A DNA stretch of 64,000 nt, from assembly GCA_036788695.1 (NCBI GenBank), contig DAIQMY010000001.1, positions 150,792 through 214,791 on the forward strand. Direction: 5' to 3'. This stretch comes from Candidatus Levyibacteriota bacterium (lineage in GTDB: Bacteria > Patescibacteriota > Microgenomatia > Levybacterales > GWA1-39-11). The position numbers and the translations under genes are program-made. The notes under the pieces were generated by a model that saw only the letters and a list, made by a program, of their open reading frames with translations, searched no databases and was not told the DNA's origin. This document shows positions 2,418-19,375 of the stretch, piece by piece. Within the stretch, counting starts at the first letter, position 1. Each line of letters begins with the position of its first letter.

Positions 2418-2435
2418 ATGATAGTTTTAAAATAA

Positions 2436-4424
2436 TCATTCATTATTCACCTTGTTGTTATCTGTAACAGGAGACGTAATAGGCTGTTGTGTAATTGGTT
2501 GAGATGCCTGTGGAGTAGGTTTCATAGCGGGTTGCGTTAGAGGCGCTTCTGTAGGAGGAGCTTCCTGTTTTGCGTCTGCTTCTTTTATGAATTGTTCTGC
2601 TGCCTGCGTATTTGTTCGTTCTGCCTCATCCAAAATGTCTTGAGGTTTAGAGGTGACCAGTTGATACTCAAAGTTTGATGCCAAAAATTGAGCTGTTAAG
2701 TGGTTTTGCCCTGCAAAAAAAAGTCCCTCTCCAACCTGCGCTGTTAGCAGAAATTGCTTTTCACCTTCTGATAAGTTAAGGGTTGAGGCGAGCGTTTCTA
2801 CCTCAGATGAGTTTTGTTTTAACAGGACCTGCATAGAAGAATTAGATAAGATTGCCTTGCCATAGTCGGAAGACAGGAAATCTTCTATGTCTTGGGTAAG
2901 CGTTGTAACTCCCAGGTAATATTTTCGTGCTCGCTTTGCAATTCCTTGCAAGAATGCAGCAGAGTCAGGATTTTTCATAAGATACCATGCCTCATCTACT
3001 ATTAATATACGTTTTTTCAATTTAGTTCTTACTCTGTTCCAAATAAAATCTAATATTACCTGCATGGCGACTGGCCTAAGAGATTCTTCAAGCTGTTTTA
3101 TTGAAAAAACGGTAAGTTGATTTTTAACATCGTAGTTAGTCTGTGAGTTTAATAGTCCTGAGAACCCTCCTTTGATGTACTTTTCTAGTCTAAACGCAAG
3201 GTCCTTGGCATCTGTTTCTTCCATATTCAAAAGTGTTTTATATAAATCCTCAAGAATGGGTGGTTCATTGCCAAAAGTTGATGGGTCAGGGATTATCCCT
3301 TTTTGCTTGTAACACAAAACGAGCGCGCGGTCTAAAATTGCCTCCTGTGTTGGAGAGAATTCACCAAGCATAATCTTGAGAAGTGAGTGGAGGGATAAAA
3401 ACTTTATTCCAAGCTGCGCTTCTGATCTGTCATCTGAAAGAAGGGCAAACGGATTAATTTTTACCTCAGAGTCTTTTGAAAAAGATATGTATTCTCCATC
3501 GAGCGCATGGCAGAGTGCTTTATATTCATCCTCAGGATCTATGATGAGAATTTCTGTGTCAAACATCATTTGACGCAACACCTCAAGCTTAACTAGAAAT
3601 GATTTTCCAGAACCAGATTTCCCAAAGACAACAGAATTTGCATTCTCAAATGAGAAGCGATCCACAATGATAAGTGAATTATTTAGCGTGTTTACTCCAT
3701 AAAAAATACCGTTTGGTTGAGATATTTCATAGGATGTGAAGGGAAACGTTGAGGCAACGGATGTAGTATCCATGTTTCGGGTAATAAATAATTTATCCTC
3801 CCCCAGGGGGAGTGTTGTTTTAAATCCGTCCTCCATTTGAAGAGTAGCGGGTTTTATAACCAGCAAGTTTGAGGCAAGTAGGGAAGTGAGTTCATTCGTT
3901 TTCTTATCAAGTTCATCAACTGTTTTTGCTGAAAGTGTAACATAGAGTCCAAATTGAAAGAATCGTTCAAGTCCCCGCGCTAACTCTTCACGCAGGGCGA
4001 TCGCGTCCTCAAGGGATGCTCGAACCTTAGGATCAGGTTCTATGCCGTTTTTCATATCTGATTCAATCGTTGCTTCCATTTCTCCAATTTTGCGTTTCAA
4101 ATTGGAAAGAATATCCCGACTTTCAACTGGGTATATAAACATAGATACGTTCATGGTTTCCTTGTAGTCTATAAGTATAGAAAGCCAATTTGGAGAAACT
4201 TCGCGCGGATAGTCAATTACAATAAACGTTCGGTAGAAAGCGTCTCCTACGCGAATATATTTAAAATCTACCTCAACGGATGAGGGAGCAAGAAGATCTA
4301 TCAGAGACACAGACCCACTTTTTAATTTCCCAACATCGTGTGTGATTTGAGGTTGTGGTGCAGATTGAGCTGTTTGTGCAGGTGCACTTTTTTCTGTTTG
4401 TTTTTTCTTTCCTAGTCCTAGCAT
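2436..4424 (-). CDS. virB4: VirB4/TrbE/CagE-family T4SS ATPase, C-terminal ATPase portion (662 aa)
   Basis: Walker A VVFGKSGSGKSF and Walker B RILIVDEAWYL (the DEAW motif is typical of VirB4). N-terminal stretch LIDLLAPSSVEVDFKYIRVGD...YPREVSPNWLSIL resembles the VirB4 middle region. Own RBS AAAGGAG 9 nt upstream of ATG. Confidence 0.8.
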   Translation of the reverse strand: MLGLGKKKQTEKSAPAQTAQSAPQPQITHDVGKLKSGSVSLIDLLAPSSVEVDFKYIRVGDAFYRTFIVIDYPREVSPNWLSILIDYKETMNVSMFIYPVESRDILSNLKRKIGEMEATIESDMKNGIEPDPKVRASLEDAIALREELARGLERFFQFGLYVTLSAKTVDELDKKTNELTSLLASNLLVIKPATLQMEDGFKTTLPLGEDKLFITRNMDTTSVASTFPFTSYEISQPNGIFYGVNTLNNSLIIVDRFSFENANSVVFGKSGSGKSFLVKLEVLRQMMFDTEILIIDPEDEYKALCHALDGEYISFSKDSEVKINPFALLSDDRSEAQLGIKFLSLHSLLKIMLGEFSPTQEAILDRALVLCYKQKGIIPDPSTFGNEPPILEDLYKTLLNMEETDAKDLAFRLEKYIKGGFSGLLNSQTNYDVKNQLTVFSIKQLEESLRPVAMQVILDFIWNRVRTKLKKRILIVDEAWYLMKNPDSAAFLQGIAKRARKYYLGVTTLTQDIEDFLSSDYGKAILSNSSMQVLLKQNSSEVETLASTLNLSEGEKQFLLTAQVGEGLFFAGQNHLTAQFLASNFEYQLVTSKPQDILDEAERTNTQAAEQFIKEADAKQEAPPTEAPLTQPAMKPTPQASQPITQQPITSPVTDNNKVNNE

Positions 4425-4463
4425 GTTTTACAATAACTCCTTTTTGTCGTATGTAGCGTATTT

Positions 4464-5078
4464 CTACACAATAATATTTTTAACGTCACTTGTTGAAAAG
4501 TCCACATTCATGCTTGTCTGGTTGAAAAGTTCAAAAAATACTCGTCCTAACTCTTCAGCCTTAATGACTCTACTGGAAAGCCCTATTCGTTCAATTTGCG
4601 TCATAACATTTGTTCTCTTGCTAGCTATTGCATCCGCGGTGCGTGCTTCGTGCGTCTTTTTACTGCCTCCTGATGTTGGCCCTAGCTCGAGCGCATTAAA
4701 TGGGATTACCACATATGTTTTTTTATCTAGCAGCCCATCTTCTTTTATAAGTTCCTGGATGAAATCCTTGTAGAGCCTTAAGTGCTCAGCCACTCGTGCG
4801 TTTTGGGTAACGGTAATTTTGTGATCAAGAGATGAGACATATGATGAGAGATCAATTCTTTTGGAAACTATCACAATCTGGATTGCAAAAGAGAGAGAAT
4901 TTAAAAGCGACATATACCCATATATACGCGCGTTTTGTTCGTCTTGGGAAAGAAGAAAAAAGTTAACAGATGAAACTTCCAGGATAGAGCATGCATTTTT
5001 TCCTTTTAAAAATACCGTGTCATCCCGAATATCTTCGATCTCAATAAAGGATTGTGTTGTCGATTTAATTTTAGCCAT
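4464..5078 (-). CDS. Stand-alone VirB4 N-terminal (CagE_TrbE_VirB-like) domain protein, 204 aa
   Basis: IEIEDIRDDTVFLKGKNACSILEVSSVNFFLLSQDEQNARIYGYMSLLNSL resembles the N-terminal domain of Gram-positive VirB4 homologs (PrgJ/TcpF/TraE type). Sits directly upstream of the ATPase part on the same strand, separated by a TAG stop and a 39-nt spacer containing an RBS. Confidence 0.5.
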   Translation of the reverse strand: MAKIKSTTQSFIEIEDIRDDTVFLKGKNACSILEVSSVNFFLLSQDEQNARIYGYMSLLNSLSFAIQIVIVSKRIDLSSYVSSLDHKITVTQNARVAEHLRLYKDFIQELIKEDGLLDKKTYVVIPFNALELGPTSGGSKKTHEARTADAIASKRTNVMTQIERIGLSSRVIKAEELGRVFFELFNQTSMNVDFSTSDVKNIIV

Positions 5079-5086
5079 GGGCAGTT

Positions 5087-6154
5087 TTATAAAGTATTTT
5101 GTGCAACTCCAAACAATTCACGTCTTAATTTTTCGCGTTGGTCTACAGATATTACTTGAATAGGTTGAGCCACTGATCCATCAAGCGTTATTCTGGTATC
5201 TTGAAACTCTTGTTTTTTTAACGTGTCCTCAAGGTGCAGGGTATATGTTCCGCTTGGAAGTGGAGTTGCGGCTCTAAAAAAACCATTTGCGTCAGTTCGG
5301 AAGGTTCGGAGTGGAACGTTTTGCGTATCAAGCACTTCCACAATGATGTGGGGGAGCGGTTTTCCTCTTGGGTCAAGTATTTTGCCTTGTAAAATATTGG
5401 CTATGTCTATGCCTCCTACAGATACTTGAGAGGGTGCCACTGGAGGGGTTATCGGTTGCGTTTCAGCTACTGCATGAGGCGTAGGAGGAACAATTTGTGA
5501 TTGAGAAGCAGAAGATTCTGTTTGGCTTGTACTTTCCTGAACAGGAGGGACTGAAGTTTCCGTATGGGGAGCAGATAATTCCCCAGACGTTCCTTCTTGC
5601 GTGTGTATGGCAGAGGCTTGCGTTGTGGGAGTTTTTTCATCGGCCTTAATAACTCTATTCGTAAATCCGCCCTGCTGTGTTGTGCCATCTTTGAAGAGGT
5701 TGCTCACGTTTTCTACTTGAGACTTCTCATCAGCATCAGGCTTAAAATAAGAACTTGCAAGCTGATTAAAAAGTTTTGCTTTTTGTACTGCTGCGCTGTC
5801 TCCTGAATTTGAGTCAGTAACGTTAGTGTGCGACGGAGGGGTAAATGTAAAGTATGGCATTTGTACTCCGTGTTTTTTGTAAATATATTGATTTTCCGCG
5901 GGAATTGCCTTAAAGAAGTTAAAAAGCATCTTATCCATAGGTCTTCCATCAATAGGCACAAACGCAAGACAAAGCCCTACGCCTCCTGAGAGAAGCATAA
6001 AGGGAAGCTTTAGTAAAAACGGAATGGGGAAAAAATAGAACAAGAGTGCAAAAACCCCGCCACCTAAAAGATATAAAAATTGTTTTACCGTAACAGATCC
6101 TATAAGCCTAAATTTAAACCCTGTAACGTCTTGGGGGATAGGATGATTTTCCAT
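5087..6154 (-). CDS. VirB3/PrgI-like small T4SS membrane protein fused to a long Ser/Thr/Pro/Gln-rich linker and a C-terminal transthyretin/carboxypeptidase-regulatory-like beta-sandwich domain
   Basis: N-terminal FKFRLIGSVTVKQFLYLLGGGVFALLFYFFPIPFLLKLPFMLLSGGVGLCLAF gives two TM helices in the VirB3/PrgI arrangement. Position immediately upstream of VirB4 in the conserved VirB3-VirB4 order. C-terminal GKILDPRGKPLPHIIVEVLD...GTYTLHLEDTL resembles a prealbumin-like fold. Confidence 0.4.
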   Translation of the reverse strand: MENHPIPQDVTGFKFRLIGSVTVKQFLYLLGGGVFALLFYFFPIPFLLKLPFMLLSGGVGLCLAFVPIDGRPMDKMLFNFFKAIPAENQYIYKKHGVQMPYFTFTPPSHTNVTDSNSGDSAAVQKAKLFNQLASSYFKPDADEKSQVENVSNLFKDGTTQQGGFTNRVIKADEKTPTTQASAIHTQEGTSGELSAPHTETSVPPVQESTSQTESSASQSQIVPPTPHAVAETQPITPPVAPSQVSVGGIDIANILQGKILDPRGKPLPHIIVEVLDTQNVPLRTFRTDANGFFRAATPLPSGTYTLHLEDTLKKQEFQDTRITLDGSVAQPIQVISVDQREKLRRELFGVAQNTL

Positions 6155-6402
6155 ATATTAAAGGGTATAACGTGAAACATATGCTTTCAAGATTATCAAA
6201 ATAGGTCAAAAAAAAGACATTCTGTGCGTAACGTGAAAAGCGCTGTGCTTTCTTGACACGCGCTTATGTTTTGCCGTACCATAAATAAAGAGAATGTTGT
6301 AAGCAGTTTGTTATTTTGTAGTTAAGAAGAATAGTGAAAAGAAGCCTATAATGCGAGTAAGATAATGATAAAAGAAATACTTTCTAAAATTATTTCATAA
6401 CT

Positions 6403-6741: not shown

Positions 6742-6742
6742 T

Positions 6743-8680
6743 ATGACAAAGAATATACAAACAGAGGCAGCAGCGCGTGCCATAACAAATAGAACAGAGC
6801 TAACTCCGGCTGAGCAGCAAGATAAACAAAAACAGCTCGCAGCAGGTGCTGCAAAAAGAAGTCTTGAAAAAAGACGTGAGGCCCTGGGTGGAGACGACCA
6901 TGGCTTTATGGAGGGAATGAGGAGTACAAAAAAAGAGACACTTGATGTGCCAACCGCAGATGATGCAGAGAAGGTAATTGAATCAGCCGCCAATACTCCT
7001 GAACAAAAAAGCGAAGCAAAAAAAATAGACGCAGTTTTGCGAGCAGTATTCTCAGGAGATAAAGCCTATCTTGAGGAACATCAGAATGCAACAAGTGACT
7101 CGTTAATTGCTCCTATTCGTGAAATGATGAGAAGGGACCCTGCCTTCAAAGAACTAGCAGATGCGATTGACAATAGTCCTGCTTCTTTCAATGAATGGGT
7201 TCAATTTGTGGCAGAGCAGTTAGATTCGGGGCGTAATCCAGGGGATAACAGGTTTGTGGACAATCTTCAGGCAAAGTATAAATCGTTTATGGAGAAGGAC
7301 AGAGAGGAATCGGGGGATAAGACGGCAATTCGAAGAAAGCTTGATATGCAAAAAGCAAAAGAAGACGCGCTAAACGATCAGTATCAGGCAAATATAAAAG
7401 AAGTTGAAGAAAATCGAGCACGAAAAGAATCTTTTTCTGATATGGATAACGGTGCGGGAAAAGAATTAAAGGAGATAACTGATACGGTTGCTAGTGAGGC
7501 TGAAGATCGGAAGCGGATAGAGGAGGAGATTGCGGAATTAAGAGTTGATAAAGCAAGAGTAGATGAAGATGCGCATAGCACTAATTTGTCAATAAGAAGA
7601 GAAGCCGAGCAAACACTGCGTCGATTGAGGACGAATATTTCTGATAAAGAAAAAGAGCTTGCCCCATTTAAAAAAAATATTGTTAAAAAAGAATCATTGA
7701 CTTCTGAAATGAAAGGATTAAATAATACGCACGAAAAACTTTTGCAAGATCAAGGAAGTCTTGCAACTCAAATTGAAACGATTCGTGAGGAGCGAACAAA
7801 GATAGAGAAACAATTAAATATCGGAGGCGGTAAGGATAAGGAGGACTTCGTAGGGGACCTGCGAGCTATTATGGGTGATGCTTTTCGGGACACTATGATT
7901 GCCAGATTTGATGCACAGCAGGCAGGCGTTAGTGAATCCTTTAAGGAGCTTATTGCGGAAGCACGCGATCCTCACGTTAAGGCAGCACTGGAGCAGCTGC
8001 AAGATAGTCATAATCGTTGGAAGGATTGGGATTCGGTCTGGAAAACAAAGCTGAAGGTTCCTTATGGTCGCAAGGAAGAGCCAAGTATGCAAAAGGATCT
8101 TATGAAGGAAGATGTAGACATTTTGCTTAAAGAGGGTCCTGAGAGTTTTATGAGAAGATTTCTTAGCCACAAGATGGATCCGGATACGAAAAACGCAGGT
8201 AATCCTCAGGGAATGATGTACTCTAAAGAAAAGATAGACGAACTCATTTCAGATAAAGACTTTATGGCTGCGGTACAGCCAAAGGCTGCCGGGTTATTAG
8301 TTCGCCAGGCAGTACAGACAAACGTATTGTCTGAGCGTCAAATGGCTGAGTTGAGAGATACAGAATGGGGAATGAGTGCGATTGAAAGTGCGCTGATGTT
8401 GGATAAGACTGCAGTTGAGAGCGGTAGAGCGCATCAGGCAATAGACTACATAAAGAAGCATCCAAAATTTGCGTGGTGGATGCTTCTTACGTTTTTATGG
8501 CCACCAGCAGGATTATTCGTTGCGGGAGTATACGCAGGTAAAGAGGTTGTGTCTGGAGTATTTCCGGGTAAAAATAAAGAGCATGCCGGAGGGCATGATA
8601 AAAAGCCTGTGAATGTTGAGCCTCCTCCATCACCTCACAATGAGCAGCAGTTTGCGCCTAGCCTCGCACCTGCGCATTAA
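6743..8680 (+). CDS. Large charged coiled-coil protein (645 aa) with a hydrophobic segment near the C-terminus (HPKFAWWMLLTFLWPPAGLFVAGVYAG); unknown function
   Basis: Long ORF with K/E/R/D/Q-rich, helical-looking sequence and a C-terminal TM helix. No recognisable catalytic motif. Confidence 0.55.
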   Translation: MTKNIQTEAAARAITNRTELTPAEQQDKQKQLAAGAAKRSLEKRREALGGDDHGFMEGMRSTKKETLDVPTADDAEKVIESAANTPEQKSEAKKIDAVLRAVFSGDKAYLEEHQNATSDSLIAPIREMMRRDPAFKELADAIDNSPASFNEWVQFVAEQLDSGRNPGDNRFVDNLQAKYKSFMEKDREESGDKTAIRRKLDMQKAKEDALNDQYQANIKEVEENRARKESFSDMDNGAGKELKEITDTVASEAEDRKRIEEEIAELRVDKARVDEDAHSTNLSIRREAEQTLRRLRTNISDKEKELAPFKKNIVKKESLTSEMKGLNNTHEKLLQDQGSLATQIETIREERTKIEKQLNIGGGKDKEDFVGDLRAIMGDAFRDTMIARFDAQQAGVSESFKELIAEARDPHVKAALEQLQDSHNRWKDWDSVWKTKLKVPYGRKEEPSMQKDLMKEDVDILLKEGPESFMRRFLSHKMDPDTKNAGNPQGMMYSKEKIDELISDKDFMAAVQPKAAGLLVRQAVQTNVLSERQMAELRDTEWGMSAIESALMLDKTAVESGRAHQAIDYIKKHPKFAWWMLLTFLWPPAGLFVAGVYAGKEVVSGVFPGKNKEHAGGHDKKPVNVEPPPSPHNEQQFAPSLAPAH

Positions 8681-8699
8681 GGAAAAGTGGGAAGTATGA

Positions 8700-9056
8700 T
8701 TAGAGTTTCTCTTCTGTTTTCGGAGGACTTGTGAGTTGGTTTAAGTCAACGCCCGTGAATTGAGACAAAAGGTTTATCATGACAAATGACATCATGATAA
8801 TAACTAGCCCAATAATTGCATAGGTAAGTCTTTTTCTGGCATTGTCCACTTTTTCTTTATCCCCTGAAGACGTTACATATTGGTAGCCTGAGTAAATGAT
8901 AAGAAATACGGCAACTACGCCGGATAGGACTAGTGCTGCATTAATTACATTTTGTAAGACAATCCATATGCAGGATATGGTAGCTACTCCTGTTGCATCT
9001 GGAATTCCCTCCAATGGTCTTACACATTCTCCCCAATCTTCTGTGAATAAATCCAT
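8700..9056 (-). CDS. T4SS pilin-like small membrane protein (VirB2/TrbC-type, T4SS_pilin family), paralog 3
   Basis: Two hydrophobic helices flanking the loop YVTSSGDKEKVDNARKRLTYAIIGLVII. The same architecture and motif recur in three neighbouring genes. Confidence 0.6.
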   Translation of the reverse strand: MDLFTEDWGECVRPLEGIPDATGVATISCIWIVLQNVINAALVLSGVVAVFLIIYSGYQYVTSSGDKEKVDNARKRLTYAIIGLVIIMMSFVMINLLSQFTGVDLNQLTSPPKTEEKL

Positions 9057-9121
9057 GTGCTATTAGCATAAAACAAATGTGAAAGATAATTCAAGAGGAA
9101 AGGTGTAAGTAGGCACCGTAC

Positions 9122-9577
9122 TTATTGGCTAGTATTCCGAAGTGTAGGTATTTCAAACCCAGAAGTAAGGTAATTACCGGTAAAGATGTAAAGGACTGCG
9201 TTTATGATAACGTAGGCTAATATAACTATGATAAGTCCTACAATTGCTGCAACTATTGTAGAGCGTGCAGTATCAATTTTTCCTTTATCTCCGCCTGAAA
9301 GAATCCATCGAACGCCTCCATACAAAAGGAAAATAAGGGATAAAACAATTCCGATAATTATAATAGCGTTTATAATAAAAGCAATCAGTTGATTTGGTGA
9401 CACGTCAATATTCCCGATTGATTTAGGTGACTTAATTATTATAGGTTCAATATTCTGAGCAAATGCAGGGGTCGCTAGAACGGACATAAGAAGTGAGCCA
9501 AATGATACTGAGGCGGTATTTATTATTTTTTGCAAACTCATATGATTAATTAGAACATGTTTTTTTTTGCATGTCAA
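9122..9577 (-). CDS. T4SS pilin-like small membrane protein, paralog 2, with an N-terminal Sec-type signal peptide
   Basis: Core IFLLYGGVRWILSGGDKGKIDTARSTIVAAIVGLIIVIL. The track start at 9577 is TTG. An in-frame ATG at 9541 gives MSLQKIINTASVSFGSLLMSVLATPAFA-QN, a classic signal peptide. Confidence 0.6.
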   Translation of the reverse strand: MTCKKKHVLINHMSLQKIINTASVSFGSLLMSVLATPAFAQNIEPIIIKSPKSIGNIDVSPNQLIAFIINAIIIIGIVLSLIFLLYGGVRWILSGGDKGKIDTARSTIVAAIVGLIIVILAYVIINAVLYIFTGNYLTSGFEIPTLRNTSQ

Positions 9578-9583
9578 TAAGCG

Positions 9584-9913
9584 TTATTGTTTTCCTATGT
9601 CTTGTAGGACTTGCGCGCCCAGGAGTAAGCCCACAATTCTTACAATGATAAAGGATAGGAGGATAATAATAAGCCCTACTATTGCGTACGTGATAGTGCG
9701 TCTTGCGCGGTCCAGTTTTGCCTTATCTCCTTGAGACGTAATCCATAAAACTCCCGCGTATAAAAGAAAAATAAGAGACGCAATAATGCCTATGGTAACG
9801 AACAGTCCTAATCCGAAGTTAATAATATCAGATGGGGCGTTTGCGCCTGATGGGATATTTTCAGGTGTTTGCACGTCTCCATATCCGGGTATTTTTAAAG
9901 ATAAGTATTTCAT
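9584..9913 (-). CDS. T4SS pilin-like small membrane protein, paralog 1
   Basis: Core IFLLYAGVLWITSQGDKAKLDRARRTITYAIVGLIIILL. Its ATG directly abuts the stop of the upstream pilin-like frame (TAATATG). Confidence 0.6.
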   Translation of the reverse strand: MKYLSLKIPGYGDVQTPENIPSGANAPSDIINFGLGLFVTIGIIASLIFLLYAGVLWITSQGDKAKLDRARRTITYAIVGLIIILLSFIIVRIVGLLLGAQVLQDIGKQ

Positions 9914-9914
9914 A

Positions 9915-10401
9915 TTATTGAAAGCCTGGTATTCGCAAAATGTTTATACCTATAAACTCAAGTATCGCAATTGAGAGAATAATAAATATTAGTCCAGTGA
10001 TTGCTGCGGTTATTTGTTCCCGTGCTTGACCCACTTTTTCTTTGTTTCCCGCAGATGTCATGATGGTATATCCTGCGCGGATAAAGAAAAGGAGAGCTGC
10101 AACTCCTCCGATTGAGAGTACTATGGTAAAAATATCACGTACAAAAAATTGAGGCTCTGTGCTGATCTTTATTCCAAGTGCTGTTGGAATTTTTTTGCAA
10201 TACCCAGTTGTCTGATCTATATCTTGCTTATCGCAAAGCGCTCGGGGTTGAGACCATGGAATTGCAACTCCTAACTCTTTGCCATATGGATCTTTTATTG
10301 CTGTGCCTATTGTTCCTGTTTCTCCGCCGCTTGCTATTGTAAGCGGAATAAAGTAGTAGGTGAAATCGTTTTGTTCGCAGGTAAAAGTGTTTCCATTTTT
10401 T
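9915..10401 (-). CDS. Fourth T4SS pilin-like domain in an open frame of ~160 codons that lacks any ATG/GTG/TTG start; likely the C-terminal domain of a fusion with the upstream secreted protein via a -1 shift at an A8 tract, or else a pseudogene
   Basis: Manual translation of the minus strand gives ...KKIPTALGIKISTEPQFFVRDIFTIVLSIGGVAALLFFIRAGYTIMTSAGNKEKVGQAREQITAAITGLIFIILSIAILEFIGINILRIPGFQ*, which matches the pilin paralogs. The frame stays open upstream to a TAA at about 10423 and overlaps the last 20 codons of the 419-aa ORF in the -1 frame. The only in-frame Met lies inside the TM helix. Confidence 0.45.
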
Positions 10402-11557
10402 TTAAGTCCCGGCCGTCTTTAATTTTAAGAAGATATTTTCCTTCTGTAAGGGTTCCAAATACATATCCGTCGGCATCTTTTGATTCTGAACTGAGGAACA
10501 TATCTATCTCTCCTGTTCCATCTTCGGGTTTGGGGTTTGCGTTTACAACTAAGCATCTAGGCGCACTCTTGTAATCATTATCCAACCCTTCAACCTGTAG
10601 CCAATAATCATTATAAATATTTGAGTCCTTGCCTGATTTTATGTTTCTACCTTTTAAAATAATGGGTAGGGTGAATCCATTTTTTGTACTATTTGTATTT
10701 AGATTTGTGACAGTTTCCGCTTTTGGCTTTATAATCTCAGGGTAAAAGTGAGTTACGTAAAATACCGCATCCGCCTTTACATCATCAGGGCTTACGCTTT
10801 TACTATCTTTCCCCTGCGATAAATATACATGGTATGTTTTTCCTGCGTGAAACCAATCTCCAGAAGTGAACTGATTCGTTTCAGTACAGTCTTCTTTAAG
10901 TGTTTTTTCTCCATCCCCACACAACTTGCTTAGTATAACTATTCCGTCTCTTGGTTGCGCTTCTTGCCAGTCATCCTCCCCACAATCTTGAGGTTTACTT
11001 TTGAGGCAGTAGAAATATTTTGCGTTTTTAGTAGGATTGGAAAGATTAATAAATCGAACAGAAATATAAGGAACGCTTTCATCTATAAATGCTTGATTCG
11101 TTTTTGGATTTTTTGGAAGTCCTCTTGTTGCGCCCAGTCCCTTACAGATATAGTAAGATTCAGTAGTAATGCAGTCACTCAGGTTTGGATTATTAACTTC
11201 ATCTAAAAATCTGTCTTCGTCAGTTTTTCCCTCCTCGTTTGCACATGTACTTTCTGTAAAAAGAGTTGAATCATCAATTGTAATGGTAGATGTTCCTAAA
11301 GGTTTTTGTATTTTGCGATTTTGTGCCGGAATATCAAAGTACCTGCATAAATTTGTGCAGATATTGTCATCAGGGGGGACAAATGAGATGTCCTTTAAGG
11401 GCACTTCTTTCCCTTTAATAGTTTTAGTTACCAATTTTTGGGAAGAACATTCGCTTAGGTCTTGTCCGCTGAATTGAACACCCGTGGCGTATGTTGTAGC
11501 TGTTGTGAAAATTAAAAATAAGAAGAAGACAGGCAATAGCAGGAAAGTTTTCTTCAT
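10334..11557 (-). CDS. Secreted Cys-rich protein (about 407 aa from the internal ATG; the track ORF starts at a TTG at 11593); candidate pilus-associated adhesin
   Basis: Signal peptide MKKTFLLLPVFFLFLIFTTATTYATG. Numerous Cys residues suggest disulfide-rich extracellular domains. The 3' end contains the A8 tract (plus-strand T run 10396-10403) where a -1 shift joins the downstream pilin frame. Confidence 0.55.
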   Translation of the reverse strand: MKKTFLLLPVFFLFLIFTTATTYATGVQFSGQDLSECSSQKLVTKTIKGKEVPLKDISFVPPDDNICTNLCRYFDIPAQNRKIQKPLGTSTITIDDSTLFTESTCANEEGKTDEDRFLDEVNNPNLSDCITTESYYICKGLGATRGLPKNPKTNQAFIDESVPYISVRFINLSNPTKNAKYFYCLKSKPQDCGEDDWQEAQPRDGIVILSKLCGDGEKTLKEDCTETNQFTSGDWFHAGKTYHVYLSQGKDSKSVSPDDVKADAVFYVTHFYPEIIKPKAETVTNLNTNSTKNGFTLPIILKGRNIKSGKDSNIYNDYWLQVEGLDNDYKSAPRCLVVNANPKPEDGTGEIDMFLSSESKDADGYVFGTLTEGKYLLKIKDGRDLKKMETLLPANKTISPTTLFRLQ

Positions 11558-11598
11558 ATAACTATCATAGGAGGTTTTTTGCTCTAAAGTCAAGAAAT

Positions 11599-12930
11599 TT
11601 ATGGAAGAAAGCGGTATCCTCTACCTTTTATAGTAGTAAGATGTGTCGGGTTGTTTGGGTCTTCTTCAATCTTTCGTCTGACTCTGTATATGATTTGATC
11701 AAGTGCTTGGTCGGTCACGCCCTCACGTGTCTTTTCATCTGACCATACAGACTCTATTATTTCCTCTTTTGTACACACCTTATCAGTGTTTTGAATTAAA
11801 AACCGTAACAGTTTAAATTCTGATGGTGAGAGTATATCCGTTAGCGACTCGTTCCCTGCTTTTATTTCTTGAGTATCTGTGTCAAATGTTATTTTCTCAG
11901 TTGCGGGGTGTGGAAAGTGGGACAGATTTTTTTCAAATAAAGGAATTTGAATTTCTCCGTTCTGAACAAGATAAGAGTATTGCAGAAAAGAATCTTTTGG
12001 AGTATCTTTTGGGGATTTGAGAAGTATTTTTTGCTCAATTGGTATAAGCGAATTCCATATTTCAGTCAAAGCTCCTTGAATTGCAGCTTTTGAAAGTAAA
12101 AAAGTTGCCATATCCGCGTGCTTTCCCTCTTGAGCAAGCACAGTTTCAAGGGCTATTCTGGATAATTTTCCATGTCCCCCTGTAAGTTTTATAATTTCTT
12201 TGTGCGTTGCAGGACTAACCGTTCTTCCGCTCGTTTTCTCAAGATAGGCAAAGCGGAAAGCATTCGCCTCAGCGTCACAAAGGGGAAGGAAAACGTGGTT
12301 TCCTACGACAAATTCATAGAAATCCCCGTATATGCTAGGTTCCAATAACTCCTCAAGCGGTCGTTCTAGGGAGAAAACGCAAGAAAATCTATATTTTGCC
12401 CTATTTCGTAAAACATGCAAATCTGTAAAAAAAGAAGAACTTATCTGTGGGAAATAGGTGTCAAATCTATCAAAGAGAAGAACTACGGTTAGCTCCCGCT
12501 CTATAGACAAATAGTCTATGGCACGTTTTAACGCCTGAAAAAGTATTAATTCATCCTGAAAAGAAATCGCCTCCTTGAGAATGTTGTTTACCGCCTCTTG
12601 TTCTTCCTCCATCTTCCGTTCTGAAAAAGAGTAGGAAAGGGAGATAAGAATAAATTTTATTAGTTCGTAAAAATTTCTTCCCTTAATCTCTGATAGATCC
12701 ATATAGACAAAGTGGTACCATTTATAGTTTTCTCCTAGGTGAAGAACGCGCAAGGGATTATTGTAGGCTAAAAGCCGCAAGACGTTTGAACGACCAACTC
12801 CAGGAAGGCCGACAACTTGCGCGGAGTTTCCCTTTTGAACGTATGAGAGAATTTTATCTATCTCATGTGTCCTGGAGGATGGAGGATAAAGAGAGTCAAA
12901 ATGCATGGGTTCTGAGGCTAAAGTAGTCAT
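11599..12930 (-). CDS. Putative transcriptional regulator: N-terminal P-loop NTPase-like domain (AAA/STAND-like) plus C-terminal OmpR/PhoB-type winged-helix DNA-binding domain
   Basis: P-loop-like VVGLPGVGRSNVL. C-terminus TKEEIIESVWSDEKTREGVTDQALDQIIYRVRRKIEEDPNNPTHLTTIKGRGYRF matches the trans_reg_C winged-helix signature (W...V.V.I.RLR.K...........I.TV.G.GYR). Confidence 0.55.
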   Translation of the reverse strand: MTTLASEPMHFDSLYPPSSRTHEIDKILSYVQKGNSAQVVGLPGVGRSNVLRLLAYNNPLRVLHLGENYKWYHFVYMDLSEIKGRNFYELIKFILISLSYSFSERKMEEEQEAVNNILKEAISFQDELILFQALKRAIDYLSIERELTVVLLFDRFDTYFPQISSSFFTDLHVLRNRAKYRFSCVFSLERPLEELLEPSIYGDFYEFVVGNHVFLPLCDAEANAFRFAYLEKTSGRTVSPATHKEIIKLTGGHGKLSRIALETVLAQEGKHADMATFLLSKAAIQGALTEIWNSLIPIEQKILLKSPKDTPKDSFLQYSYLVQNGEIQIPLFEKNLSHFPHPATEKITFDTDTQEIKAGNESLTDILSPSEFKLLRFLIQNTDKVCTKEEIIESVWSDEKTREGVTDQALDQIIYRVRRKIEEDPNNPTHLTTIKGRGYRFLP

Positions 12931-13003
12931 ATGTTAGTTAATTGTAAGCTTCTTATAAGGATAATATCAAGTTTGAAGGTGCATCTTCCCCTATACTTGC
13001 CTC

Positions 13004-16000
13004 ATGAATGAAAGATTTTTGCCACAAGAATTGACAGCAGGAAGGGTATCTTCTACACTTAATGTAAGGAGTACTATGCCAGAGCCACAAAAAGAAGAAC
13101 CTATTGTTCTCAAAAAAAATGAAGTGCATCCTCCCAGGATAAGTAATTCTCCACGACCAGAATCAATACAAGAGCTTATGCAAAGTCAGGCAGAACGTGA
13201 GGCGGCACGAGCCATAATGGAAGAGGCTCGGAAGCAAGGAAAAACATTATCTGAGGATGAAAAAAAAATGATTCTTGCTTCAGGAATTAAATTTCCTATT
13301 TTTGGAGGCGCTGATGTGCCAGAAAATGATTCTTATAATCCAGACAGTGAAGACAGTGAAGAAAACCAGGGCGGAGAGGTTATAAGAAGGGGTTTTGAGC
13401 TGCGACCCCCACGTGATCACGCCCATAACCCGCAACTCCTTGATGAGATAGAAAAATTTAATAGGGTAGCTGAGTTGGGTGTTGATTTTGATGATCTCAA
13501 ACGCGAGGCAGATAAAATCATGAATCTTCAGTCGTTAGACCCAAACAATCCGATTACATCTGAGCAAAGACAAGACCTTATAAGACAGCTTTCTAAGAAA
13601 GGACAAGAGATTGCGGAAGCAAGAATGAATAATCCAGACAGGTTTGGTTTTTACCTTGAAACCCAAGACTTACGAGAATTGGATGATGATCCTATAGCAT
13701 GGCTAGATTCTCAATTTGGTCAAATATACAATTTGTCTAGATTGGGGAATGAGTTAGATTCTCCCGCTTTGCAGCGTGCGCAGACAGAAGTACAAGAAGC
13801 ATCTGCATATCTCCTGAAGAGATTTGGAAAATTCAGAAAAGAGGGGATTAAAAATGCCAAAGACGTTGATCAGGCAAATCAGGATAGTAAGTTGTTGTTG
13901 GAATTTAATGAAACATTTATGATCAGGTTAAACCTCATTTTTGCCAGAACAGCAATTGATCAAAGAAATATGGAGCAAATACAGGGCGCAGTTGGAAGAC
14001 TAAGAACTTTAGGTTTTGCCGGAGCCCAAGCTTTTGACAATGGAGCAGTTGGTGCTATGTATAACCGTATGGAGGCGATGCTTGGGAATTTGCGGCTTGC
14101 AGAAGGTGGGCGTGAGCATCACCTTAATCCTATGTCTTTAAACAAGTTGCAGGAAAGAACTATAGACGAGCAGATAAAACTTGCAAAAGAAGGCGTAGGT
14201 ATATTTGCCGATAGATATAAGGATATCCTGTTGGATCCAAAGAAACGGTTGAATGCTGATGACGTATTAAAACGCGAGATAATCAGGTCTGTTAGAACAG
14301 CATACGATATTTTAGTTGTATCCCAGAGAGTAGCAATAGTTGCCGCTCGCGGTAATTATAGAGGAGACAGGCAGCAGTACTTCTCTGATAATGGTGGTGC
14401 TTTTGCTGTATTTAACTTGGAACAAATGACTATTAATAAGTGGGACCTATTAAATCATGAGGAGCAGGAGTTCTTTGATTTTCTCAAGCTTGACATGGCT
14501 ATTAATAATAAAAAAGGAGTAGATGTATCCGGGTTGACGCGTGAACAATTATTAGACTTAGGAGGAAGGCTATTTAGGGATCTGTATGTAGTTCCTGATT
14601 TTTATTCATCATCCTGGAGAATGAATGGAATGAGGGATCAGTTGGGGAGGGTAATTCAGTATAGGGCTGAAAACGACAAAATGATTGAGAAGTTGATAGA
14701 AGATCCTAATTTTACTCCCGCTGATGAAAGACTAGTGGAGTTGCAACGGCAAATGAGGGCAGACAAAGAAAGTTATATGAAGGCATGGGATGAGCGTAAT
14801 CCTTCAAATAGAATATTGCCGGGAGATCGCGAAATTGCGCAAAGACAATTTTCCCGCCAAATGTTTGAGAAAGTCTTAACCCGTGACCAAAGAGAGCTAT
14901 GCCTGAGAGTTCTGACACCGGACGACATGATGGATGTTATAAATGTTGCAATAAAAAAAGCCGGTACGCAGTTAGGAAAAGAGGTTGGAGACTTTGCTCT
15001 GTTTGTACAGTTGAAGCAAAGTTTGGGACATTTAGGACATCGCTCTGGATCACCGGAAGATATACGTAAAGAGACACGTAACTACAGGACTGAAGTTTGG
15101 GAAAAGATTCAAAAATTTAAAACAGAGGATGTTATACAGTTGATAAGAGGTCGGGCACGACCAGATATATACACGGAAGACTACAATAACTTGCGTGAGT
15201 TATATACGCTTTTTGAGAAAAATGATCCAGAATTGGGAGTACTAACTAATGAGCAGAAAGAATTGCAAAAAACGGGGGGCATAGAAGCATTTCATACATA
15301 TGATAGGTTTATTGAGAAATACGGTTCAGTAATTCAGGCAGTACGTCAAGACGCAATGCGAAACAGCTTAACTGGTCCAGAGCAGGTAGATATGACCAAT
15401 CTAAACCCTCGACAGATTGAAATGGTTAACAGAATGCTAGGGAATGGAGCAGCGGTTACTCTCCAAAATATCTATAAGGACATGAACAAATTTATAAATC
15501 GTCACGGTATTGTCAAGGAACTTGTGACAAGCCATAAGTACATAGATCTTTACAATAGAGTAATAAACGTAGAGGATGTAATGCTTGACACATTAGAATC
15601 AATACCTGAAAACGCGAGCTTCCAGAAGTTATCAGATTATTTCACTGCAGAGTCAGGAGCAGATGCCTTAAAACGAAACTTTAATGATATAGGAAATGCG
15701 GTGAATGCAGGGAACGCATTTATTAAATTTATCACAACTGAAGACAAGGAAGGAAGATTTAAAGAATCCAAAGTTATGAAAGGCGCTGTGGAGGCGTATA
15801 ATGGTCGCGGAAACGGTGCTGAAGTTATGCGATTTACCTATGGAACAGAATTATTATATTCTCTGCAGTACTATTGGGTTAATATGTTGCGTTTAGGTGC
15901 ACTTCCGTTAAGAAAGCCAACCTCAGTGAAGCAGGAGCATTATGGAATTGGAGCAAAATCCTTAACCAGAGAAGATGTCCGTGGAGATTTGGATCATCAC

Positions 16001-16195
16001 AAAACAGAATTTGTAGGACGAGGAGCAGATGCTGATCAGTGGTTTGTCCAATTAGAGGAGCTAACAGGGACAGATATGGAATCTACAATGAAGAGAAATG
16101 CGCTAACACTTCTGATATATGCGTTCTTGGGGATAGTGGTAGGAGCGCCGGTTGGGGCTGCGGCAGCAGCACTGGCAGGAGCGCAGAAAGGATAA
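13004..16195 (+). CDS. Very large hypothetical protein (1063 aa), charged and mostly helical, with an extreme C-terminal hydrophobic tail (LLIYAFLGIVVGAPVGAAAAALAGA); unknown function
   Basis: Uninterrupted 3.2 kb ORF with ATG start, divergent from the regulator gene. No recognisable enzymatic motif. Confidence 0.55.
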   Translation: MNERFLPQELTAGRVSSTLNVRSTMPEPQKEEPIVLKKNEVHPPRISNSPRPESIQELMQSQAEREAARAIMEEARKQGKTLSEDEKKMILASGIKFPIFGGADVPENDSYNPDSEDSEENQGGEVIRRGFELRPPRDHAHNPQLLDEIEKFNRVAELGVDFDDLKREADKIMNLQSLDPNNPITSEQRQDLIRQLSKKGQEIAEARMNNPDRFGFYLETQDLRELDDDPIAWLDSQFGQIYNLSRLGNELDSPALQRAQTEVQEASAYLLKRFGKFRKEGIKNAKDVDQANQDSKLLLEFNETFMIRLNLIFARTAIDQRNMEQIQGAVGRLRTLGFAGAQAFDNGAVGAMYNRMEAMLGNLRLAEGGREHHLNPMSLNKLQERTIDEQIKLAKEGVGIFADRYKDILLDPKKRLNADDVLKREIIRSVRTAYDILVVSQRVAIVAARGNYRGDRQQYFSDNGGAFAVFNLEQMTINKWDLLNHEEQEFFDFLKLDMAINNKKGVDVSGLTREQLLDLGGRLFRDLYVVPDFYSSSWRMNGMRDQLGRVIQYRAENDKMIEKLIEDPNFTPADERLVELQRQMRADKESYMKAWDERNPSNRILPGDREIAQRQFSRQMFEKVLTRDQRELCLRVLTPDDMMDVINVAIKKAGTQLGKEVGDFALFVQLKQSLGHLGHRSGSPEDIRKETRNYRTEVWEKIQKFKTEDVIQLIRGRARPDIYTEDYNNLRELYTLFEKNDPELGVLTNEQKELQKTGGIEAFHTYDRFIEKYGSVIQAVRQDAMRNSLTGPEQVDMTNLNPRQIEMVNRMLGNGAAVTLQNIYKDMNKFINRHGIVKELVTSHKYIDLYNRVINVEDVMLDTLESIPENASFQKLSDYFTAESGADALKRNFNDIGNAVNAGNAFIKFITTEDKEGRFKESKVMKGAVEAYNGRGNGAEVMRFTYGTELLYSLQYYWVNMLRLGALPLRKPTSVKQEHYGIGAKSLTREDVRGDLDHHKTEFVGRGADADQWFVQLEELTGTDMESTMKRNALTLLIYAFLGIVVGAPVGAAAAALAGAQKG

Positions 16196-16207
16196 AACAT
16201 AAAAATT

Positions 16208-17932
16208 TTATCTTCCAAGCATTCCTTTAAAGAATTTTTTCGCTCCTCCAATAGCTTCAGGTGTGGTTGATCCGGCTTTATATTCTGCCTTTGCTCCAAA
16301 CGCCATTTCTTTGACACCACTAATACCTTTTCCTCCTACTGCCTGGGAAGCGCCAAAGGATGTCCTAATATCTTTTAGTCCAAAGTCCATAGCGCCAACT
16401 GCCTTTCGGGTTCTATCAAGTATACTTGGCATGGATATGATAAAGCCAAAGCCTATAAATGCCGCTATAGCAGGACTTCCGCCGACCGCGTCACCTATAA
16501 GCGGAGGAGAGAAGAGCCCACCTTGACTTCCTACGTTGCTCATAATTGTTTTCCCAAGTAATATTACGCCAAACGCCATAGGAAAAACTGATAAATGGCC
16601 CATGAGATGCCGTATCCAACTAGAAAATCCTAATTTACTTCCCGGAAATATTCCAGCAGTTATCCAGAGGGGAGCAACTATTACATCTATGAGAACATAG
16701 ATAAAAGATTTTATAAGCGTAAACCATACGCGGAACAATGAGAATATAATAGCAATGAGTATTATTAAAAATGTAACAATAGTAAAAAGGCTGATAATCG
16801 CTGCCCTGAAGAACGATTCAACAAAATTACACCCTCCTCCCGCAAACAACCCTCCTATGGGCGTATCCCTTAGCCATCCTCCCAATCCTGGCACATATCC
16901 CAATGCTCCTACGCCCGCTGTGACCCCAATTTTCCCTAGATCTACGACTCCACACCCAATAGAGCTGACGGCATTAAAGGGGGTGAAGAAGACCTGGAAA
17001 AAAGATGAGATGGTAGACTCTAAAAAGTCTATTGAGATATTTCCTAAAACCTTGCTAATGCCCCAGGAAGTTTGCCCGGCGATCCCTATAATTCCGGGAA
17101 TATGATTTATACCGCTCAGATTTGGTGTGTCTATACTAAATGATTTGTTTACTACGCCAAATACGGTAGAGGAGGTGCTAACATTTGTTGGTATAAGACT
17201 ATTAAATGTTAGAATAACAAGATAAAGGGTCACATACATAAAATCTATAAGAAGTCCGGCGATTGCGTAAGAAAAAGTGACTAAAATAAGCGCTATTATC
17301 ATTTTGGGGATTTGGTTTTGAATACTCATAACCGTACGTGCATCAATTTTTACCCTGAACATAATTGCAAGTCCCACAATAGTAAACCCTAAAACAAAGG
17401 CGAGGTATGCAATATCTCTAAATCGTGCCCATATTCCAACAAGCGGTCGTAACCTGTCAAATCCTACTCCGTTTTCTTTAGGGTCATTCTCTGCGTAAGC
17501 GCTGCGTGCTACGCCAAAGTTTCCTGCCATATATGCTGCGTAGTCCACTCCGGATACTGGTAGAGTAAAGGTTTCACCTATAAGTCTTCCCATGACCTGT
17601 GTTGCTCCTCCTCCTTGGGCCTCATATCCTATTTGTCCACTTTTTAGATCTACCCCCAAACAGGTTTTTTTTGGGTCTAGAGGGTTATATCCTGAAAGCA
17701 CGCAGACTGTGCTTGCTAGTGTATTGATGAGTGTCGCTTGAGTAAGCGTATTAAGATTTTGAGGAACTTGAGGGTTAACATTTCCATACAGCATTTGATT
17801 ATTCATTGTTGCGACAGTTGGATAGGTAGTTGCAGAAGGAGTAATTATGGGTGCTTGAGCAAGAATGGGTTTTATACTGCTTGCAATAAGAAAGAAGACA
17901 AGAACGTACAGAATATGTTTTAGTTTTCTCAT
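16208..17932 (-). CDS. Polytopic membrane protein, VirB6/TrbL-like candidate, with a signal peptide and an N-terminal extracytoplasmic domain followed by at least six TM helices
   Basis: Internal ATG at 17932 gives signal peptide MRKLKHILYVLVFFLIASSIKPILAQA (the track start at 17977 is TTG). Multiple long hydrophobic helices and Gly-rich loops, and its position in a T4SS-like island. Family assignment is by architecture and context only. Confidence 0.4.
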   Translation of the reverse strand: MRKLKHILYVLVFFLIASSIKPILAQAPIITPSATTYPTVATMNNQMLYGNVNPQVPQNLNTLTQATLINTLASTVCVLSGYNPLDPKKTCLGVDLKSGQIGYEAQGGGATQVMGRLIGETFTLPVSGVDYAAYMAGNFGVARSAYAENDPKENGVGFDRLRPLVGIWARFRDIAYLAFVLGFTIVGLAIMFRVKIDARTVMSIQNQIPKMIIALILVTFSYAIAGLLIDFMYVTLYLVILTFNSLIPTNVSTSSTVFGVVNKSFSIDTPNLSGINHIPGIIGIAGQTSWGISKVLGNISIDFLESTISSFFQVFFTPFNAVSSIGCGVVDLGKIGVTAGVGALGYVPGLGGWLRDTPIGGLFAGGGCNFVESFFRAAIISLFTIVTFLIILIAIIFSLFRVWFTLIKSFIYVLIDVIVAPLWITAGIFPGSKLGFSSWIRHLMGHLSVFPMAFGVILLGKTIMSNVGSQGGLFSPPLIGDAVGGSPAIAAFIGFGFIISMPSILDRTRKAVGAMDFGLKDIRTSFGASQAVGGKGISGVKEMAFGAKAEYKAGSTTPEAIGGAKKFFKGMLGR

Positions 17933-18029
17933 AGGGCAGGTAGTTTTAGTATGGCTCAAAAAGCAACAAAAAGTCAAGGAATATATAAGTAGGGGTTTTT
18001 ATTGACAACTATATATAAAACAGGGTATC

Positions 18030-18596: not shown

Positions 18597-18807
18597 TCTT
18601 ATCTTCTCTCAGTCTTCGTTTCGTGTCTGGCATTCTCTTTAATCACACTTCGCACCGTATTATAAATGATCTGATTTTTTGAGTCTTATAGGCGTAACTA
18701 GAACACATAAAATACTCAGCAGAAAAGTGGAAATCTCTTCAAATTTCTTACATGAAAATAGTGAGGCTAAAAAAAGACCTGCATCTTTTTGATACAGTAA
18801 TTACCTG

Positions 18808-18836: not shown

Positions 18837-18923
18837 AGTTTTTGGCACTAAATATGGTTCAAGCCTATGATAGCCAAATAAGAAAGATCAATTAGGCAAA
18901 GAGTAAATTGAAAACAAAACAGA

Positions 18924-19373: not shown

Positions 19374-19375
19374 TT

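Follow-up and report, generated by a model that had tools for sequence, protein, structure and literature searches.

REG, as the gene under study is called here, lies on the minus strand (11599..12930) of a stretch of 64,000 nucleotides from a Candidatus Levyibacteriota bacterium (assembly GCA_036788695.1, contig DAIQMY010000001.1, positions 150,792 to 214,791), which was analysed as a whole and is referred to as the window. According to the list of open reading frames (ORFs) and the translation, REG encodes a protein of 443 amino acids (aa) with an ATG start, in which a nucleotide-binding module of the STAND type (signal transduction ATPases with numerous domains) is followed by a winged helix-turn-helix (wHTH) domain of the OmpR/PhoB type. 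The locus is vertically conserved, and REG is a fixed component of a chromosomal locus for pilins and an apparatus resembling type IV secretion systems (T4SS) in the Levyibacteriota, as was observed in about 70 genomes. Its designation as locus-associated is strongly supported, and the protein probably serves as a dedicated control of the pilus and secretion genes.

Patescibacteria account for a large share of bacterial diversity, and their T4SS-like pilus is thought to mediate an epibiotic lifestyle. Few systems have been linked to the host-dependent life of these bacteria, and the genes for this pilus are one of them; a survey of T4SS in Patescibacteria from 2025 reported arrays of VirB2 as especially abundant in Microgenomatia and mentioned no regulator (PMC12102498). 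The literature searched contained no description of a regulator for the T4SS-like pilus of Patescibacteria. REG is a concrete candidate; a repeat resembling an operator and a conserved partner gene go with it.

Conservation of the REG locus

A search of 5.8 billion proteins yielded at least 882 homologues of REG, nearly all of 433–460 aa, which were named merely "winged helix-turn-helix domain-containing protein" and came from Candidatus Levyibacteriota, Parcubacteria and the "Patescibacteria group". Scanning of genomes, with one genome per species, resulted in 70 full-length loci, the titles of which were almost all Levybacteria/Levyibacteriota, Microgenomates or Patescibacteria. Many bins from third party annotation carried a REG locus of the Patescibacteria type and the title "uncultured Gammaproteobacteria bacterium" (L004, L006, L007, L010 and many others); these are apparent mislabels.

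When the proteins of the window were used as phmmer queries on the ORFs of all fetched loci, a recurring gene order was found: ribonucleotide reductase (RNR)–NrdR–DUF5667–P589–(P1063)–REG–pilin fusion–PIL1–PIL2–PIL3–(P645/P112)–PrgI–TraC–VirB4, in genomes whose REG proteins share 41–87% identity. Synteny including housekeeping flanks was present in at least 24 loci. A gene with a pilin domain adjoined REG in 61 of the 63 loci with sufficient flanking sequence, downstream on the same strand in 55 and divergently in 6, and the gap between REG and the pilin gene had a median of about 40 nt in the 55 co-directional loci. Upstream of REG, a divergent gene for a protein of 900–1600 aa was found in 52 of 56 loci. 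Six loci were rearranged, with REG moved or inverted (e.g., L037, L055, L058, L063), and still contained REG next to the pilin array and a P1063-like gene.

In the window, the GC content was flat (0.38–0.42) over 1–24 kb, and ARAGORN detected no tRNA gene before 31 kb; the rest consisted of ordinary chromosomal genes (RNR, NrdR, cobalamin adenosyltransferase, UvrD, MurJ, a VirD4-like gene). A preliminary description of this gene, made from the sequence alone, had regarded it as embedded in an island. This view had to be abandoned, considering the same gene order in genomes with REG identities of 41–87%, the housekeeping flanks and the lack of a break in GC content. The same description had suggested a tie to T4SS_pilin genes, to be checked by co-occurrence, and here the adjacency in 61 of 63 loci is in agreement with it and fits a locus-specific regulator.

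Strongly degenerate paralogues of a Patescibacteria-like kind, with the P-loop MKKVGIS, form a different subfamily and are not located beside pilin genes; one had a VirD4-like gene nearby and another glycosyltransferases. The link to T4SS is thus specific to the Levyibacteriota subfamily, and a wider association beyond the Levyibacteriota was rejected.

Domain structure of REG

The C-terminal domain (residues 344–443; 11599..11901, minus strand) was recognized by the Pfam model Trans_reg_C (PF00486), which matched residues 367–441 with E = 6.7e-21 and 74.6 bits, the gathering cut-off being 26.2. Sequence searches of the PDB with REG yielded OmpR/PhoB-type DNA-binding domains only (DrrB, RegX3, KdpE, PhoB). 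The NCBIfam equivalogs for response regulators covered only residues from about 345 to 441 and were all far under their cut-offs. No match to Response_reg was obtained with Pfam, i.e., there is a P-loop fold at the N-terminus instead of a receiver domain; control is therefore not exerted by phosphorylation of an aspartate residue. Matches to BTAD, GerE or TPR domains were likewise absent in Pfam.

The N-terminal module (residues 1–340; 11911..12930, minus strand) consists of a P-loop nucleotide-binding domain (NBD), a helical lid and a winged-helix-like subdomain (helices 282–334). Its fold was assigned by structure, since a PDB search with the N-terminal profile by sequence alone produced noise at the level of P-loops, with an ABC transporter as best match (E = 0.03). 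The AlphaFold model of REG had a pLDDT (predicted local distance difference test) of 90.5, and fold comparison pointed to the wheat NB-ARC resistosome (15.3), Orc1/Cdc6 (14.4), SSO1545 (14.2) and CED-4 (13.6), with MuB, BrxC, TnsC and MalT (11.7) as further entries. The layout of the nucleotide-binding oligomerisation domain (NOD) of STAND proteins, an AAA+-like P-loop NBD followed by helical and winged-helix subdomains, is present; sensor repeats are absent, as is a receiver domain. Across members of the REG family, Pfam models for nucleoside triphosphatases (NTPases) remained below threshold, including nSTAND1 (PF20703), AAA_16 and AAA_35; ATPase_2 (PF01637) matched one of 13 members with E = 0.022.

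An order of domains with an NTPase first, an OmpR-type wHTH last and no receiver had been proposed in the preliminary description, and is borne out by Pfam and by the fold. Two findings had been named there that would speak against it, namely a C-terminal domain below the threshold of Trans_reg_C and an N-terminus without an NTPase fold. Since the former scored 74.6 bits against 26.2 and the latter possesses a P-loop fold of the STAND/AAA+ type, the observation on REG is confirmed.

The nucleotide-binding site

In the Walker A motif or P-loop (GLPGVGRS; 12787..12810, minus strand), Arg47 replaces the canonical lysine, and in the Walker B motif (VLLFDRFD; 12460..12483, minus strand), the invariant Asp154 is followed by Arg155 at the position of the catalytic glutamate. 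The canonical combination of Walker A GxxxxGK[ST] and Walker B hhhhD[DE] is thus not present in REG. In an alignment of 120 members of the family, the Walker A consensus was GxPGxG[KR]S, with arginine in 62 and lysine in 56 and no third residue at position 47; a Fitch count on an UPGMA (unweighted pair group method with arithmetic mean) tree gave at least 11 switches between the two states, and a protein of the K-type and one of the R-type can share 76% identity. Walker B read DRFD or DRFE in 103 of the 120 members, the position of the catalytic glutamate being occupied by arginine in 105 and by lysine in 4. An acidic residue (D/E157) is kept two positions past the Walker B aspartate. Invariant or nearly so are the P-loop glycines (G44, G46), Ser48, Asp154, Arg155, a LRNR.KYRF block and GGHGKL. 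The recognition helix VTDQALDQIIYRVRRK of the wHTH domain (G404–K420, VTDQALDQIIYRxRxK) is almost invariant as well, so that a conserved DNA target is to be expected.

Relatives from Chloroflexi, which are described below, contain canonical GxxxxGKS and hhhhFDEFD or FDQFD in the columns aligned to the Walker motifs of REG, and GGHPGL in the columns of the GxP motif, versus GGHGKL in the REG family (Pro to Gly). In P-loop NTPases, exchanges of Lys to Arg and of Glu to Gln or Arg usually keep binding and abolish hydrolysis. The catalytic site of the Levyibacteriota branch is degraded, and hydrolysis of ATP is doubtful because of the exchanges of the lysine and the catalytic glutamate to arginine. 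Binding of a nucleotide is plausible, since phosphate-binding features are kept and position 47 is strictly K or R.

These data bear on the possibility that REG is a catalytically active, ATP-driven switch similar to MalT or AfsR, which senses nucleotide or energy status, cycles between an ADP-bound off state and an ATP-bound on state and activates the locus. The STAND/AAA+ fold with its conserved P-loop glycines, Ser48 and Walker B aspartate would be compatible with such a switch, about half of the family retains the Walker A lysine, and the conserved D/E157 might stand in as catalytic base. Against it are the arginine at position 47 of REG in a family where K and R swap freely, the near-complete replacement of the catalytic glutamate, where the Chloroflexi relatives have Glu or Gln, and the lack of a sensor domain which could couple a ligand to nucleotide exchange; we consider an active switch rather unlikely. 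Of the earlier suggestion that REG integrates a nucleotide signal, the part concerning binding still is plausible, while a switch driven by hydrolysis is improbable in view of Arg47, the repeated K/R switches and the family-wide loss of the glutamate.

Relatives in Chloroflexi and likeness to known regulators

A profile of the 340 N-terminal residues was searched against 1.84 billion cluster representatives and matched 1157 clusters at E ≤ 1e-3, most of them with proteins of 430–480 aa. About 57 of these clusters constituted the close REG family; a far larger group, with a length of about 450 aa, appeared at E values of about 1e-20 to 1e-30. The source names of these wider relatives were Anaerolineae or Chloroflexi "winged helix-turn-helix transcriptional regulator". 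Those which were tested mostly had a C-terminal Trans_reg_C domain, with nSTAND1, AAA_35, AAA_16 and AAA_22 at or near threshold (about 25–32 bits), and some possessed an N-terminal Ser/Thr kinase or additional TCAD9 and TIR domains. Alignment of the REG family with the Chloroflexi family by hhalign gave a probability of 100 and E = 1.5e-82 over 430 columns, nearly end to end for both. From this end-to-end homology it follows that the layout of REG is not unique and is ancestral to a large family of Chloroflexi and Patescibacteria that still awaits characterisation; in the preliminary description it had stood out as the reverse of SARP/AfsR-type regulators. Anaerolineae matches in the genome scan (L075–L082) were excluded from the REG family, since they were ordinary response regulators with a receiver (REC) and Trans_reg_C, matching at the C-terminus only.

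In all three Chloroflexi-type contexts which were read, the gene was preceded by genes for a multi-GAF His-kinase and a REC-TCAD9 (APH-like) protein. Neither the window nor the Levyibacteriota loci contained such a partner beside REG. We infer that the REG family descends from Chloroflexi-type STAND-wHTH proteins with a His-kinase and REC-TCAD9 partner, and that the Levyibacteriota branch lost this partner from its neighbourhood. Both groups have in common the size, the domain order (in Chloroflexi, an NTPase similar to nSTAND1 or AAA_35 followed by Trans_reg_C), the motifs LR.LR..KYR and GGH.G.L, and the recognition helix of the wHTH domain. They differ in that the Chloroflexi family has canonical Walker motifs and the kinase/REC-TCAD9 cassette, whereas the REG branch has K or R in Walker A, DRF[DE] in Walker B, and a fixed place in the T4SS/pilin locus.

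Recent work names MalT, GutR and AfsR as known STAND transcription factors, and the minimal STAND-plus-wHTH layout of REG is unlike these. MalT and the large ATP-binding regulators of the LuxR type (LAL) also have the NOD first and the DNA-binding domain last; MalT, unlike REG, contains an arm, a large SUPR sensor and a LuxR/GerE-type HTH, is an active ATPase and comprises about 900 aa. AfsR combines, like REG, a NOD with an OmpR-type domain, and its working principle involves 11-bp repeats, which in the case of REG are candidates. In AfsR and large Streptomyces antibiotic regulatory proteins (SARP), the order is reversed (DNA-binding domain–BTAD–NOD–TPR), and REG has neither a BTAD nor a TPR sensor. 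The archaeal ATPases PABY2304 (2qen) and SSO1545 (2fna) of Pfam ATPase_2, with 14% identity to REG, do not have an OmpR-type domain. Response regulators of the OmpR/PhoB group share the family of the DNA-binding domain with REG, and binding to tandem direct repeats is the expected mode; they possess a receiver domain, which REG does not. REG thus belongs to the Trans_reg_C proteins and to an unnamed STAND-wHTH family shared with Chloroflexi, and is not a response regulator, a SARP or a MalT/LAL protein. In its working principle it most resembles MalT/LAL and AfsR, minus their sensor domains and with a degraded active site. No paper on a layout of NOD followed by an OmpR-type domain was found in the literature searched, and neither branch of the family has been characterised experimentally there.

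The shared promoter and a candidate operator

The divergent gene upstream of REG (P1063; 13004..16195, plus strand) encodes a protein of 1063 aa and is a probable co-regulated partner. Its family has a conserved N-terminal motif, M(K/N)E..ELT..TL.., the remainder being too divergent for phmmer; the protein has a fast-evolving body and, by transmembrane (TM) prediction, a single C-terminal TM segment, from which it looks tail-anchored.

The spacer between REG and P1063 is 73 bp in length (12931–13003) and holds a promoter TTGATA-18-TACAAT, with the -10 hexamer TACAAT of REG at 12946–12941, 10 nt from the ATG. Anchoring of orthologous spacers on CTTGATA revealed a pattern of three boxes, designated A, B and C (12941..12971, minus strand), which is evident from the sequence, a promoter scan, the anchored alignment of at least 20 loci and a position weight matrix (PWM). 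Box A, CTTGATAT, is the -35 element (12971–12964, minus strand). Box B follows 11 nt after box A (12960–12953, minus strand) and reads CCTTATAA in the window and CCTTACAA in the consensus, and box C, GCTTACAA, follows after another 11 nt (12949–12942, minus strand) and overlaps the -10 of REG. Boxes B and C together (12942–12960) form a direct repeat of TTACAA with a period of 11 bp, and the information resides in the columns of the two boxes, not in the gaps of 3 nt between them.

Part of the conservation of A-B-C is ordinary promoter conservation, since box A is a -35 and box C a -10 element. In several loci (L015, L019, L021, L024, L027, L028, L066), box C is no longer usable as a -10 (CACAAA, AACAAA) and has retained the ACAA core, with a second -10 element nearer to the ATG of REG. 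Conservation of boxes B and C is thus not explained by promoter function alone. With a PWM built from 20 loci and a match score of at least 16, 41 of 48 loci showed the motif upstream of REG, including at least 20 which had not been used for training, and it was almost absent elsewhere in about 1.1 Mb of the loci. In untrained loci with an inserted small gene, the motif was located about 500 nt from REG, beside the start of P1063; it is in the rearranged loci, too, that a P1063-like gene remains next to the A-B-C motif, e.g., in L055, where the motif stays with this gene. Counted from the apparently leaderless start of P1063, the centres of boxes B and C lie at around -47 and -58 (about -45 to -60), and the promoter of P1063 is without a well-spaced -35 element.

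Winged helices of PhoB, OmpR and SARP bind direct repeats of heptamers or octamers with a period of 10–11 bp. The direct repeat of boxes B and C is the best candidate for an operator of REG, a link which we infer from sequence. Another candidate for a repeated site, CTTGATATT, was uninformative, with 24 matches in the window (one mismatch) versus 33.8 expected.

Proposed mode of action and alternatives

In the mechanism which is considered most likely, the N-terminal module of REG would bind a nucleotide and hydrolyse it poorly or not at all, and would act as a slow or static nucleotide-loaded platform for oligomerisation, rather than as a cycling switch; the glycine-rich P-loop, the positive charge at the position of the lysine, Ser48 and the conserved Asp154 would provide the basis for this. 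On the TTACAA repeats of boxes B and C, at least two wHTH domains of oligomerised REG would then bind in a head-to-tail arrangement. Occupancy of the site would cover the spacer and the -10 of the REG promoter and lead to negative autoregulation, and from its position relative to the P1063 promoter, where no properly spaced -35 exists, the same site would probably cause activation of P1063. The preliminary description had called REG an activator, which with such a site would be the case for P1063 and not for REG itself. The pilin array and the prgI-traC-virB4 operon, which is preceded by a conserved element of 77 nt, may be further targets of REG; no shared motif was found.

REG would accordingly be a cytoplasmic transcription factor of the STAND class, non-hydrolysing, dedicated to the pilus/T4SS locus and reduced to the minimum, with a short linker joining NOD and wHTH. 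For this composite model as a whole the chances appear evenly balanced; its core, that REG is a transcription factor which is functionally tied to the locus, deserves more confidence than that, and the details of operator and autoregulation, as deduced from the boxes, deserve less. In a more far-reaching version, which is possible and can be put forward only tentatively, a STAND switch has lost hydrolysis as well as its kinase/REC-TCAD9 partner and has been re-used as a master regulator of the T4SS-like pilus; it would read the nucleotide state (e.g., ATP/ADP supplied by the host or dependent on the host) via binding-driven oligomerisation and set the expression of P1063, the variable pilin array and the operon of the secretion ATPase.

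Several points weigh against the composite model. NTPase models of Pfam were not above threshold for REG itself (AAA_16, 18.3 bits versus a cut-off of 32.6), and there is neither a sensor domain in the protein nor a neighbouring partner gene which could supply an input signal. As mentioned, the promoter accounts for some of the conservation of boxes A and C, and box B could serve RNA polymerase or a factor other than REG as a binding site. The matrix for boxes B and C was not enriched elsewhere in the window (14 matches versus 16.6 expected) and scored no better in the 77-nt element than in shuffled sequences. A separate promoter close to the consensus precedes the pilin-fusion gene, and no operator was recognisable in it. 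Any regulon beyond the shared promoter is thus putative.

Alternatively, REG could act on these reduced genomes as a whole, as a general or global transcription factor, and stand beside the pilins through conserved gene order, with no regulatory link. Patescibacteria have few regulators, motifs of the REG type are missing at the pilin and prgI promoters, and gene order is conserved in the lineage over the entire 20-kb region, RNR and NrdR included, so that the adjacency of REG and pilins alone is weak evidence. On the other hand, REG has remained with the pilin array and a P1063-like gene in the six rearranged loci, the only strongly conserved motif associated with REG is in the promoter shared with P1063, and the degenerate paralogues, which are not next to T4SS genes, represent another subfamily; a global role hence seems about as improbable as that of an active switch.

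Very unlikely is a function of REG as a DNA-handling accessory of the T4SS-like machine, i.e., an ATPase similar to ORC/Cdc6, MuB or TnsC which is loaded via the winged helix and, e.g., marks or processes imported or exported DNA. The Trans_reg_C domain is bona fide, as judged from its score, and its closest relatives are all transcription factors; the STAND motif of the GxP type, seen as GGHPGL in the relatives, and the end-to-end homology to His-kinase-linked regulators of Chloroflexi indicate signalling, and a conserved direct repeat is present in REG's own promoter. Least probable of all is a role of REG in conflict or defence, as the effector arm of a STAND system (cf. nSTAND1/TCAD "ternary" systems) which switches on a response to invaders: nSTAND1 was originally defined in counter-invader systems (PMC8195603) and relatives of REG are encoded with multi-GAF His-kinase and REC-TCAD9 genes or are in some cases fused to a protein kinase or to TCAD9 and TIR, but the Levyibacteriota locus contains no gene for TCAD9, a kinase, TIR or another effector, its neighbourhood is a conserved T4SS-like apparatus and not a variable defence island, and PADLOC gave no match for REG, P1063 or P589.

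Should REG indeed be a master regulator of the pilus, this would define, for the first time, a transcriptional circuit of the host-interaction machine of Patescibacteria, and REG would be a natural non-hydrolysing NOD which serves as a transcription factor. Binding without hydrolysis, if true, would in itself present a natural case of a NOD as a static oligomerisation device. On a more ordinary reading, REG would simply add a lineage-specific transcription factor to a family which already exists and awaits characterisation. The results should be useful for work on host interaction of Patescibacteria and on minimal STAND modules, and are not very surprising.

Other genes and elements of the locus

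The next gene downstream of REG (9915..11556, minus strand) encodes a pilin fusion consisting of a signal peptide, a large variable domain and a C-terminal TM hairpin of T4SS_pilin, as seen by tblastn against the intact orthologue of 466 aa in L001 and from the T4SS_pilin annotation of the latter. In the window this gene is broken into two frames at a homopolymer of eight A ("ttaaaaaaaatgg", at about 10388–10395), whereas the orthologue is intact; the frameshift is either an assembly error, or phase variation or pseudogenisation of the first pilin. A sigma-70-like promoter, TTGACT-18-TATGAT, was detected by promoter scan between the stop of REG and the ATG of the pilin fusion (11564..11593, minus strand). 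It is kept across loci as TTGCAA/TTGACT and TACGAT/TATGAT, and its -10 lies 6 nt from the ATG in an arrangement of the leaderless type. Box B does not recur in the promoters of the neighbouring pilins. Co-transcription of REG and the pilins as the sole arrangement was rejected, because this conserved promoter stands between them.

Three genes for small, VirB2-like T4SS_pilin proteins, PIL1, PIL2 and PIL3, follow (8700..9913, minus strand); all three were above the threshold for PF18895, and their order is kept across loci. The genes for a prgI-like protein (VirB3-like with CarboxypepD_reg), a TraC-like protein and a VirB4 ATPase (2436..6154, minus strand) were identified by the Pfam models PrgI, P-loop_TraG, AAA_10 and CagE_TrbE_VirB and by the TraC-like annotation of an orthologue. 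At the far edge of the locus, P589 (16208..17977, minus strand) is a conserved polytopic membrane protein with at least six TM-like segments, which is present in nearly all loci and is a possible candidate for the "missing" VirB6-like channel, for which the survey of 2025 had looked in vain in Microgenomatia. Neither P589 nor P1063 had a match in Pfam or NCBIfam. A gene for a VirD4-like coupling protein (TraG-D_C; 31206–33638, minus strand) is located about 18 kb off the rest of the T4SS-like locus.

Alignment across loci showed a conserved non-coding element of 77 nt directly upstream of the prgI-like gene (6162..6238, minus strand), with the layout TTTCAC-N24-TTTGACC-N3-TTTGATAAT-CTTGAAA(-35)-N9-TTTCACGTTA-TACCCT(-10). 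It comprises two TTTCAC boxes about 64 nt apart and a tandem of TTTGAC/TTTGAT (TTTGACC-N3-TTTGATAAT); the -35 TTGAAA and the weak -10 TACCCT form a pair which ends 7 nt from the ATG. The element is single in the window (nhmmer, E = 2.6e-17; next best E > 1) and occurred in exactly one copy in all 35 loci containing prgI. It does not belong to a described RNA family, since no match to Rfam was obtained at E ≤ 1 over positions 1–20000 of the window, and it is a second candidate for a regulatory target. An operator common to the REG promoter and the prgI element was rejected as well (score of 2.55 in 33 prgI elements versus 2.67 in shuffles, with the matrix for boxes B and C).

At prgI, the pilin fusion, REG and P1063, the end of the predicted -10 hexamer and the start codon are only 6–10 nt apart, and a Shine-Dalgarno sequence is missing (6155–6162, 11557–11563, 12931–12940 and 12995–13003, respectively), which suggests leaderless or near-leaderless mRNAs for these four genes. 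An octamer, TTTTCAC[GA], had about 14 times the density in intergenic regions of loci L003–L072 that it had in coding DNA (1.11 versus 0.08 per kb); most copies were in the prgI element and about 10 upstream of nrdR. Many relatives contained a small gene of about 125 aa, similar to four-helix-bundle or 23S intervening sequence (IVS)-type proteins, which was inserted between promoter and gene, before REG and before prgI, about 100–500 nt upstream of each (L004, L013, L016–L018, L023, L025, L029–L032, L035, L039 and others). Between the inserted gene and the ATG, short tandem repeats of an odd kind were present (e.g., GCTAGTNGCTAGT, TTTTGACTTTTGA). Among the tRNA genes which ARAGORN detected in the window were a tRNA-Ile with the anticodon TAT (31075–31151, minus strand) and a tRNA-Ser with the unusual anticodon ACT (34412–34497, plus strand), which is the divergent neighbour of a tRNA-Ser(GCT).

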